Source of the DNA: a virus
Lineage: Duplodnaviria > Heunggongvirae > Uroviricota > Caudoviricetes
DNA: 12,643 nt
Direction: 5' to 3' (one strand)
IMG/VR virus record: IMGVR_UViG_2778261064_000023
Of this stretch, positions 8,268 through 9,145 are shown piece by piece. Each line of letters begins with the position of its first letter. Position 1 is the stretch's first letter. The notes under the pieces were generated by a model. The model was not told where the DNA came from, searched no databases, and saw nothing but the letters and a program-made list of their open reading frames with translations. The position numbers were made by a program, and so were the translations under genes.

Positions 8268-8777
8268 ATGGATCGGGAGCTTAAAAACCTGAAACTTAAT
8301 ATCAATCAACTCGCAGAACTGGCGGGAGTTTGCCGCCAGACAGTAGCGAAAAGGCTAAAGGACATTCAGCCAGCCGGAGGGCATGAAAAATTAAAGCTGT
8401 ACCGACTGACGGATATAATCAGCGCATTCATGAATATACCCGCCCCCGCATCACTCGAAGACATGGATCCACAAAGCCGTAAAGCCTGGTACCAGTCTGA
8501 GCGTGAGCGCCTTAAGTTCGAGCAGGAAACGGCTGAACTTATCCCCGCCGTGGATGTGCGCAGGGAGTTGGTTATTTTTGGGAAAATCTTAAGCGAGGAA
8601 CTGGCAAAACTCCCCGACATTCTGGCGCACGATGCAGGCATCAATCAGAACGCAGTAAACCGCGTCAGGCAGATTATTGATGACCTGTGCAGGCAAATTA
8701 CTACCAGAGTGATACAGGCTAACGACTGGCACGACAGCACGCCGCAGGTAGTGCAGGAGATTCACCAGGGGGAATAA
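8268..8777 (+). CDS. TerS-like wHTH protein (Nu1-type N-terminal DNA-binding domain); candidate PICI packaging-redirection (Rpp-like) protein
   Basis: 169 aa from the ATG at 8268 (GGAGG at a 4-nt spacing); N-terminus LNINQLAELAGVCRQTVAKRLKD...AGGHEKLKLYRLTDIISAF parallels lambda Nu1 as recalled (VNKKQLADIFGASIRTIQNW...RGGGKGNEVLYDSAAVIKWY). Confidence 0.55.
   Translation: MDRELKNLKLNINQLAELAGVCRQTVAKRLKDIQPAGGHEKLKLYRLTDIISAFMNIPAPASLEDMDPQSRKAWYQSERERLKFEQETAELIPAVDVRRELVIFGKILSEELAKLPDILAHDAGINQNAVNRVRQIIDDLCRQITTRVIQANDWHDSTPQVVQEIHQGE
8745..8769 (+). repeat. 25-bp direct repeat CAGGTAGTGCAGGAGATTCACCAGG, copy 1 (3' end of the TerS-like gene)
   Basis: Identical 25-mer at 9121-9145; flanks are similar but imperfect. 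Confidence 0.9.
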
Positions 8778-9069
8778 TTCGCGGTACCGGAAAACATCCA
8801 CCAGCAGGGAACGACAAAAAAATAAAAGCGCACCGCTAAGGATGCGCCTTGATTGAGGTTCAATGAGTAAGACATGCACACACATTGTGTCGCACCTCGT
8901 TCATTCTGGCAATGTATCAGGCTGGTGCGTGCGGTAAGCCTCCAGATTTGCGCAATGGTTCCGCCTGTGATGTTAAGGTTTGTTAAGTTGTTTTGCGCAG
9001 AGATGGGCGGAATAAACATTGATGTAAGCCCCGTAATTACTGGCCTTGCCACGTAAAAACCGCGAACAA

Positions 9070-9084
9070 TGATCAGGTTGATCA
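9070..9084. promoter_or_regulatory. 15-bp perfect palindrome TGATCAGGTTGATCA
   Basis: Read from sequence; lies in the 340-bp segment between the two copies of the 25-bp repeat. Confidence 0.25.
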
Positions 9085-9120
9085 TGCTTAGAAATGCCAG
9101 GGGTATTTGCGCAAAAATGA

Positions 9121-9145
9121 CAGGTAGTGCAGGAGATTCACCAGG
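9121..9145 (+). repeat. 25-bp direct repeat, copy 2; in frame it encodes QVVQEIHQ, so it is a remnant of the 3' end of a TerS-like/Rpp-like gene
   Basis: Identical to 8745-8769; preceded by an in-frame stop, so only the gene tail is present. Confidence 0.85.

Follow-up and report, generated by a model that had tools for sequence, protein, structure and literature searches.

Why does a 25-nucleotide sequence from the end of a small-terminase gene recur, letter for letter, a few hundred bases downstream? The question is raised by virus record IMGVR_UViG_2778261064_000023, a 12,643-nt stretch of DNA (hereafter the window) that is an Escherichia coli phage satellite of the phage-inducible chromosomal island (PICI) type. 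One copy of the sequence lies inside the gene terS and the other between terS and the nearest cos site. The original prediction, made from the sequence of the window, took the roughly 340 bp between the copies for an insertion or module swap at the 3' end of terS. We read the locus as a mosaic junction within the satellite's packaging region at which a short sequence is present as two paralogous copies, and put the probability of this reading at about 55%.

The 25-mer CAGGTAGTGCAGGAGATTCACCAGG occurs at 8745-8769 (copy 1) and recurs exactly at 9121-9145 (copy 2), as originally predicted. A repeat search extends the pair to 29 nt (8745-8773 and 9121-9149), identical at 28 of 29 positions (97%) with one G/T mismatch and a spacing of 376. 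When a 19-nt core was searched with up to three mismatches, the two copy sites were its only matches in the window, and it had no match in 200 dinucleotide-preserving shuffles. Copy 1 supplies the codons QVVQEIHQ of terS. It had been described as the last 25 bp of the gene, which is incorrect: two further codons (GGG GAA) and the TAA stop follow it, and the gene ends at 8777. An in-frame stop was also said to precede copy 2, and a TGA does lie directly 5' of it in the terS frame (9118-9120). The different continuation ascribed to copy 2 does not begin where the exact identity ends. To the right of the 29-mer, copy 1 runs on as GGGGGAATAATTCGCGG and copy 2 as GGTGGAGGATTCGCAAC, and a shared continuation, GG(G/T)GGA..ATTCGC, reaches about 8787 after copy 1 and 9162 after copy 2. 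The paralogy covers about 42 bp in total, with one indel. The same right flank is recognizable among related islands, where the terS tail of the divergent island L008 and copy 2 of the island A36 (contig L007) are identical at 12 of 16 ungapped positions.

The gene that contains copy 1 was called TerS-like, and profile searches identify its product as a small-terminase homologue. The protein matches Pfam PF07278 (DUF1441; E=4.7e-35, 121 bits against a cut-off of 35.1) and, over residues 13-169, PHROG_141 'terminase small subunit' (E=2.2e-55). Phage homologues of the DUF1441 protein are annotated as terminase small subunit, and in relatives the gene is annotated by the NCBI Prokaryotic Genome Annotation Pipeline (PGAP). 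Its C-terminal tail, TPQVVQEIHQGE, is lineage-specific, and copy 1 encodes part of it. The related island L008 encodes a TerS homologue (P0002) that is 75% identical to the island TerS and ends in the tail QVAQEIHQGDNSRHS. L008 aligns with window positions 8046-8927 as one block at 77.5% identity; it has a single tail copy and no counterpart of the backbone anchor described below, and continues into a cos2-like site. As 8778-8927 directly continues terS in L008, where only one tail copy exists, we assign this segment to the terS module. On this comparison, the copy 1 tail is apparently native to terS.

We identified six islands that lack terS and nevertheless carry copy 2 (L005, L007/A36, L133, L147, L148 and L153). 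These islands match the window up to 8203, continue with about 50 bp of poorly alignable leader, and then resume with 8969-8999 and 9083-9162, including copy 2. We assign the copy 2 block to the island backbone because it is present in islands without terS; copy 2 and the right part of the interval would thus belong to the backbone and not to the terS module. A 20-nt anchor in this block, CATGCTTAGAAATGCCAGGG (9083-9102), is kept in many related PICI-like contigs (e.g., L156 8620-8930 and L006 3870-4080). Its neighbours differ by island type. Here they include a ATTTGCGCAA-type motif present three times in 8946-9114 (8946-8955, 8992-9001 and 9105-9114), and in 'type C' islands they consist of AAAAGTGTCAAG in four to seven copies. 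The block also contains two TGTTAAG sequences within 8971-8987, which account for the GTTAAG direct repeat noted earlier (8972-8977 and 8982-8987). The supposed 15-bp perfect palindrome at 9070-9084 is TGATCA-GGT-TGATCA, with 6-nt arms and a 3-nt spacer.

The interval between the copies is thus composite, as its left 150 bp (8778-8927) goes with terS and its right part goes with copy 2 in terS-less islands. Rather than one insert, the 347 bp appear to comprise the last part of the terS module and the first part of the backbone block, which meet at approximately 8928-8968. Of the two possibilities raised originally, the module junction stands and the single insertion does not. Comparisons across relatives also support the broader proposal of mosaic exchange of packaging modules between related islands.

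The sequence to the right of copy 2 is variable, with at least four different sequences found 3' of it among islands. A cargo slot lies at 9162/9163. In A36, this slot holds 1.15 kb (L007 10209-11358) with a K88-type fimbrial subunit gene (Pfam E=3e-52); the same cargo left end is found in L133, and L005 retains a 67-bp remnant (4081-4147). In three further islands (L158, L159 and L165), copy 2 and a ATTTGCGCAAAAA motif are missing through a 43-bp indel, relative to L153, that is bounded by CCAGGG microhomology.

We identified 17 genomes among 5426 complete E. coli genomes that carry the whole 8200-9350 region with both copies, at 98.4-99.9% identity. The strain ETEC6335 (L001) lacks exactly 376 bp, so that window segments 6610-8773 and 9121-9544 are joined directly and share 29 nt. 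The crossover lies inside the repeat, with the flank of copy 1 on the left and, in the flank on the right, the T variant of copy 2. The fused terS frame runs for 224 codons across the adjacent cos site, and PGAP marks the gene as incomplete. Two observations lead us to regard ETEC6335 as a derived deletion and not an empty site. The terminator segment found directly after terS in the divergent outgroup L008 is gone in ETEC6335, and its deletion in the downstream Nu1 gene (9544|10051) is common to L002-L004, which keep copy 2 and the region upstream of it (L002 has both copies). The ETEC6335 form thus looks like the product of recombination or slippage between the repeats rather than an ancestral state. 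A relative in which terS runs straight on, as sought by the original prediction, therefore exists, yet it does not represent a pre-insertion form.

Two adjacent features in the terS-module part of the interval, a hairpin with a T-run and a promoter-like site, lie on the minus strand and are kept in L008 (Table 1). The promoter-like site at 8884-8912 could give rise to a putative minus-strand transcript of about 60 nt, although the predicted fold of this candidate is not unusually stable (z = -1.2). Alternatively, the promoter-like site and terminator (8815-8912) may block antisense transcription that would otherwise run on from the Nu1 operon. An Rfam search of 8778-9120 found no family at gathering score and chance-level matches alone at E<=5. 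The interval contains open reading frames (ORFs) of 133 aa (minus strand) and 60 aa (plus strand). Neither matches a Pfam or PHROG family, and the 133-aa frame passes through the terminator. A 62-aa ORF in the terS frame after copy 2 (9127-9315) spans the cos site, is interrupted by cargo in relatives and has no PHROG match. PGAP predicts a 56-aa hypothetical protein (9145-9315) that begins inside copy 2 and also spans the cos site; it is probably spurious.

The 25-mer was scanned against viral and metagenome collections, with three two-fold degenerate positions allowed. Matches outside islands fell in lambdoid phage contigs, where the 25-mer constitutes one unit of a tandem array. In the phage contig L136, Tandem Repeats Finder (TRF) defines an array of 4.8 copies with a period of 24 (9033-9141; consensus GTAGTGCAGGAGATTCACCAGGGG). 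This array lies inside a gene for a 271-aa HTH_36/DnaD_N protein that is preceded by genes for a CI-like repressor and an antirepressor and followed by genes for a DnaC-like protein and DnaB. The arrangement is that of phage lambda, whose ori lies within gene O. In named phages, homologues of this gene bear the annotation replication protein, O or primosomal protein (SfV orf39, mEp460_043, ST64B sb42, cdtI, PhiR40_1 and Stx2a/Stx2c), and initiator genes of the SfV/mEp460 type contain five to eight iteron units each. Against the TRF consensus, copy 1 matches at 24 of 24 positions and copy 2 at 23 of 24. Exact runs shared with the island extend to 28 nt in uncultivated phages (L135-L137), 21 nt in cdtI and 20 nt in SfV and mEp460.

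The island copies thus share with SfV/mEp460-type origin iterons the same sequence, in register with the 21-24-bp period. They differ in arrangement. The phages have five to eight tandem units within an initiator gene, whereas the island has two lone units 376 bp apart, one inside the terminase gene (in another frame) and one non-coding, with no initiator gene or AT-rich region nearby. The relation is at the DNA level, as the reading frames differ: the phage gene reads the sequence as SAGDSPGG and terS reads it as QVVQEIHQ. An ORF across copy 2 in the phage-O frame (MLRNARGICAKMTGSAGDSPGG...) was considered and rejected, as indels break the frame in the related island L139. The same origin type is found in the phages whose TerS homologues are closest to the island's (PhiR40_1 and PhiR47_1 at 64.5% identity, mEp460 at about 60% and 1720a-02 at 53%).

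Three related searches delimit this match. The 12.6-kb window contains two iteron units and no tandem array, even at three mismatches; none of the 19 window ORFs scanned against Pfam is an HTH_36/DnaD-type initiator gene; and a 17-mer scan of genome contigs, a pattern too short for this purpose, returned only chance matches in unrelated bacteria. The AAAAGTGTCAAG repeat of type C islands was rejected as a phage iteron, as all 36 of its matches in the viral collection represent the same island context. Separately, a 61-kb metagenome contig (L145 1180-1360) has five iteron units beside a long AT-rich stretch, not visibly inside an initiator gene.

These comparisons suggest how the junction may have formed. 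An origin iteron unit of an SfV/mEp460-type phage would have entered the island lineage in a single capture and been duplicated there. Copy 1 would represent the native 3' end of a terS module (8046-8927) composed of the upstream inverted-repeat region, terS, the minus-strand terminator and the convergent promoter-like site. Copy 2 would belong to a non-coding backbone block (9083-9145) composed of the anchor, a ATTTGCGCAA motif and the 25-mer, beside the cargo slot and the cos site. The two copies, as direct repeats 376 bp apart, serve as a substrate for homologous or slipped-strand deletion. ETEC6335 demonstrates such a deletion at the repeats: it has lost one copy and the interval, and with them the terminator, and its terS frame has been extended across the cos site. 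Short conserved boundary sequences are known to mark module junctions in mosaic lambdoid phages, and direct repeats to mediate deletions. The island locus is similar in having a short identical patch at module edges, varied right flanks and a deletion inside the patch. It differs in that both patches occur in one element, in direct orientation, and in that the patch itself corresponds to a protein-binding repeat of a phage origin.

Several observations weigh against a mosaic junction as we describe it. No intermediate was seen that accounts for the position of copy 2 next to the anchor block, and only one deletion variant was found among 18 terS-bearing genomes. A neutral scar leaves unexplained the identity of the 25-mer alongside a paralogous right flank that has diverged by about 25%. 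In L139, which an independent anchor search also recovered, copy 2 is preserved at 25 of 25 positions, at least 7 of 18 positions in the adjacent ATTTGCGCAA motif are changed and the right flank is unrelated. Finally, identity to the window is 82-96% for terS-less islands versus 97-99.9% for terS-bearing islands. The greater diversity of terS-less islands raises the possibility that terS is a recent cassette gain and not ancestral. The history of the terS-less form thus has indications on both sides: contiguity over the left junction in the window and L008 favours deletion of terS in terS-less forms, and their higher diversity favours recent gain.

An alternative explanation is functional. The copies may be single iterons that bind the O-like initiator of a helper phage, recruiting or titrating it, and that are kept by selection for helper-driven replication near cos, helper sensing or interference. 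We regard this explanation as less probable than not. The 28-nt exact match to phage iteron units falls in register with the unit, approximately 1e-3 chance matches to the 25-mer are expected in the viral collection (a rough estimate), and the phages with the closest TerS homologues share the iteron-type origin. The contrast between core and flank is also in its favour, both in L139 copy 2 (0 of 25 positions changed in the core versus at least 7 of 18 in the adjacent motif) and between the paralogues (1 of 29 different versus 4 of 16 in the right flank). However, the units are lone, 376 bp apart, and adjoined by neither an array nor an AT-rich unwinding region nor an initiator gene, and the island encodes a primase and carries separate repeats (6172-6309) of its own. 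The sister islands L158, L159 and L165 do without copy 2, and type C islands carry unrelated repeats in the same slot, found in island contexts and not in phage origin arrays. The case for special conservation of the terS tail is weak: in the comparison of the window with L008, the terS-tail window ranks only in the top 3% or so of 29-nt windows, with several coding stretches equally conserved. The apparent invariance is partly due to ascertainment, as several loci were found by exact match. Evidence for constraint on the 25-mer within the island is suggestive only. It is correspondingly doubtful that the satellite keeps helper-origin iterons, in the last terS codons and beside the cos site and cargo slot, as putative O-like-initiator sites. 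Such sites would connect the helper's replication proteins with replication, packaging or interference by the satellite, a piracy directed at origin recognition in the helper and not at its capsid or terminase.

The two remaining explanations concern the origin of the duplication. Copy 2 could be the last remnant of an older resident terS pseudogene, with the present terS a later replacement cassette. In A36, copy 2 read in the terS frame gives QVVQEIHQGENSQP, which is near the P0002 tail, and 9061-9103 shows a weak co-linear similarity to the 3' region of L008 terS (score 11 versus 6.6 +/- 1.2 for shuffled sequences, p ~0.01, in a 60-nt comparison). Against the whole gene, though, the nucleotide similarity has p = 0.3, and there is no protein-level similarity 5' of the tail, as TerS-family proteins match just 10-13 tail codons there. 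A nucleotide relic of terS 5' of copy 2 was rejected once 9083-9102 proved to be an independently conserved anchor, present in many islands without surrounding terS-like sequence, and we consider the remnant explanation improbable. (Three chimeric proteins, P0071, P0021 and P0030, were taken to be assembly or gene-calling fusions.) Least probable is the insertion of a discrete element, about 347 bp long, into the 3' end of terS with duplication of a 25-29-bp target, the single-copy form being ancestral. ETEC6335 provides the precise single-copy form that this insertion would predict, but its derived Nu1 deletion is common to two-copy relatives. The composite interval also conflicts with an insertion, as its left part accompanies terS in L008, which lacks a second copy, and its right part and copy 2 occur without terS. 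Considered as a transposon or insertion sequence (IS) with target duplication, the interval has no terminal inverted repeats, transposase or recombinase, no protein family matches and no further copies; it was found in 24 of the 5426 genomes, in this context every time, and a 25-29-bp target duplication is atypical of transposition. Insertion is thus largely refuted. What probability a functional role of the copies leaves over falls to a phage-derived homology patch that was duplicated in module shuffling.

As a recombination scar, the mosaic junction is ordinary, yet it is a concrete record of reshuffling in the packaging region of E. coli PICIs. The types of change documented include presence or absence of terS, loss of Nu1, swapping of cargo at one slot, nested inversions and repeat-mediated deletion. 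The new element is a repeat identical to a lambdoid origin iteron and shared with the phages that have the closest TerS. If the copies bind a helper initiator, this would be a helper function not hitherto implicated in E. coli PICI piracy. If they do not, they would still clearly exemplify a homology patch of phage origin that favours the exchange of modules and deletion.

Table 1. Coordinates of features in the 12,643-nt window.
Feature	Position	Strand	Remarks
Integrase	1-1239	+	
Ash-family ORF	2513-3163	+	
isrK RNA	2732-2808	+	80 bits
C4 antisense RNA	2830-2917	+	75 bits
DUF927 primase-type gene	3920-6064	+	
SSB	6658-7080	+	
ProQ	7117-7653	+	
PerC	7650-7937	+	
Left arm of outer inverted repeat	8046-8130		Shared region upstream of terS, in all relatives; partner 11179-11253
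terS, small-terminase homologue (DUF1441 / PHROG_141)	8268-8777	+	169 aa; C-terminal tail ...TPQVVQEIHQGE
Repeat copy 1	8745-8773	+	25 nt exact, 29 nt at 28/29; equals one lambdoid origin iteron unit
Intrinsic-terminator-like hairpin and T-run	8815-8850	-	Kept together with terS in L008
Sigma-70-like promoter match	8884-8912	-	TTGCCA-17-CACAAT, facing the terminator; both hexamers kept in L008
Probable junction zone	8928-8968		L008 terS-module homology stops at 8927; terS-less-island homology starts at 8969
Backbone control-like region	8969-9120		Travels with copy 2; TGTTAAG x2, ATTTGCGCAA-type motif, TGATCA-GGT-TGATCA, anchor CATGCTTAGAAATGCCAGGG
Repeat copy 2 and diverged 13-17-nt extension	9121-9162	+	Non-coding; 25 nt exact; in-frame TGA before it
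cos1 (cosQ/cosN-like)	9262-9341	+	Inverted partner of cos2 (10207-10286); 80-nt inverted repeat
Full Nu1-type small terminase	9483-10067	-	
Second PerC	12272 onward	+	

The window has the features expected of a PICI: a terminal integrase, its own replication module and a size in the range of about 10-15 kb, without phage structural or lysis genes. Two TerS homologues are its sole packaging genes, and two cos sites lie within 12.6 kb. Relatives occur as islands of about 13.7 kb set between chromosomal genes. Candidate helper phages for the island are suggested by TerS and iteron similarity alone. Like cos PICIs of the EcCICFT073 type, the island has the integrase first, is about 13 kb long, carries a replication module of the primase type and, within the window, lacks genes for capsid or lysis. 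It also has two lambda-like cos sites with differing cosB and a TerS-related packaging gene beside cos. Two cos sites with different cosB regions are already described for EcCICFT073 in earlier work (PMC6092414, PMC6739421). Term searches of the text of these papers (Fillol-Salom et al., 2018, PMC6092414; Fillol-Salom et al., 2019, PMC6739421) found neither a duplicated 25-mer nor an identity to phage iterons.

The island differs from EcCICFT073 in that its gene is a DUF1441/PHROG_141 TerS homologue, not Rpp, and in that it adds a full Nu1 homologue. A phmmer comparison of the DUF1441 protein with all PDB chains at E<=1 found no Rpp or TerS chain, including RppC, which is deposited in PDB 6HN7 together with lambda TerS 1-98. 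The Nu1 homologue matches the lambda TerS chain of this entry (6hn7_B) at 1.5e-38. The satellite thus encodes two distinct small-terminase homologues, one of the DUF1441 type on the plus strand and one of the Nu1 type on the minus strand. In L001-L004, one shared 506-bp deletion (9545-10050) has removed Nu1, and in A36 the gene carries a frameshift.

Two further observations concern the left part of the island. The isrK and C4 RNAs are direct neighbours, located within or upstream of the Ash-family ORF, and together they resemble an RNA immunity module of the P4/P1 kind. Direct and inverted repeats, GGGACAA(T/C)AT..GGCATTTT, follow the primase gene at 6172-6309; they are unrelated to the 25-mer and are probably the island's own origin. 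In strain PSS-15 (L002 6534-8836), ISEc12 (IS21 family) lies between PerC and terS.

Nu1, on the minus strand, follows cos2, so the plus-strand order at cos1 is cosQ-cosN-cosB. This places copy 2 outside cosB, on the cosQ side of cos1 and about 115 bp from it. Both cos sites presumably follow the R3/R2/R1 layout of lambda. Their repeat cores differ (9342-9455 at cos1 and 10075-10200, minus strand, at cos2): GTCAGATCC is found at cos1 and a CATGTCGG-like sequence at cos2, which suggests two putative packaging specificities. The outer inverted repeat, 94% identical over 53 nt, encloses the whole packaging segment. In A36 (L007) and the IMG/VR contig L133, the outer segment has the reverse orientation with respect to the backbone and the inter-cos Nu1 segment has been turned back, an arrangement that indicates that both orientations of the packaging segment occur naturally.

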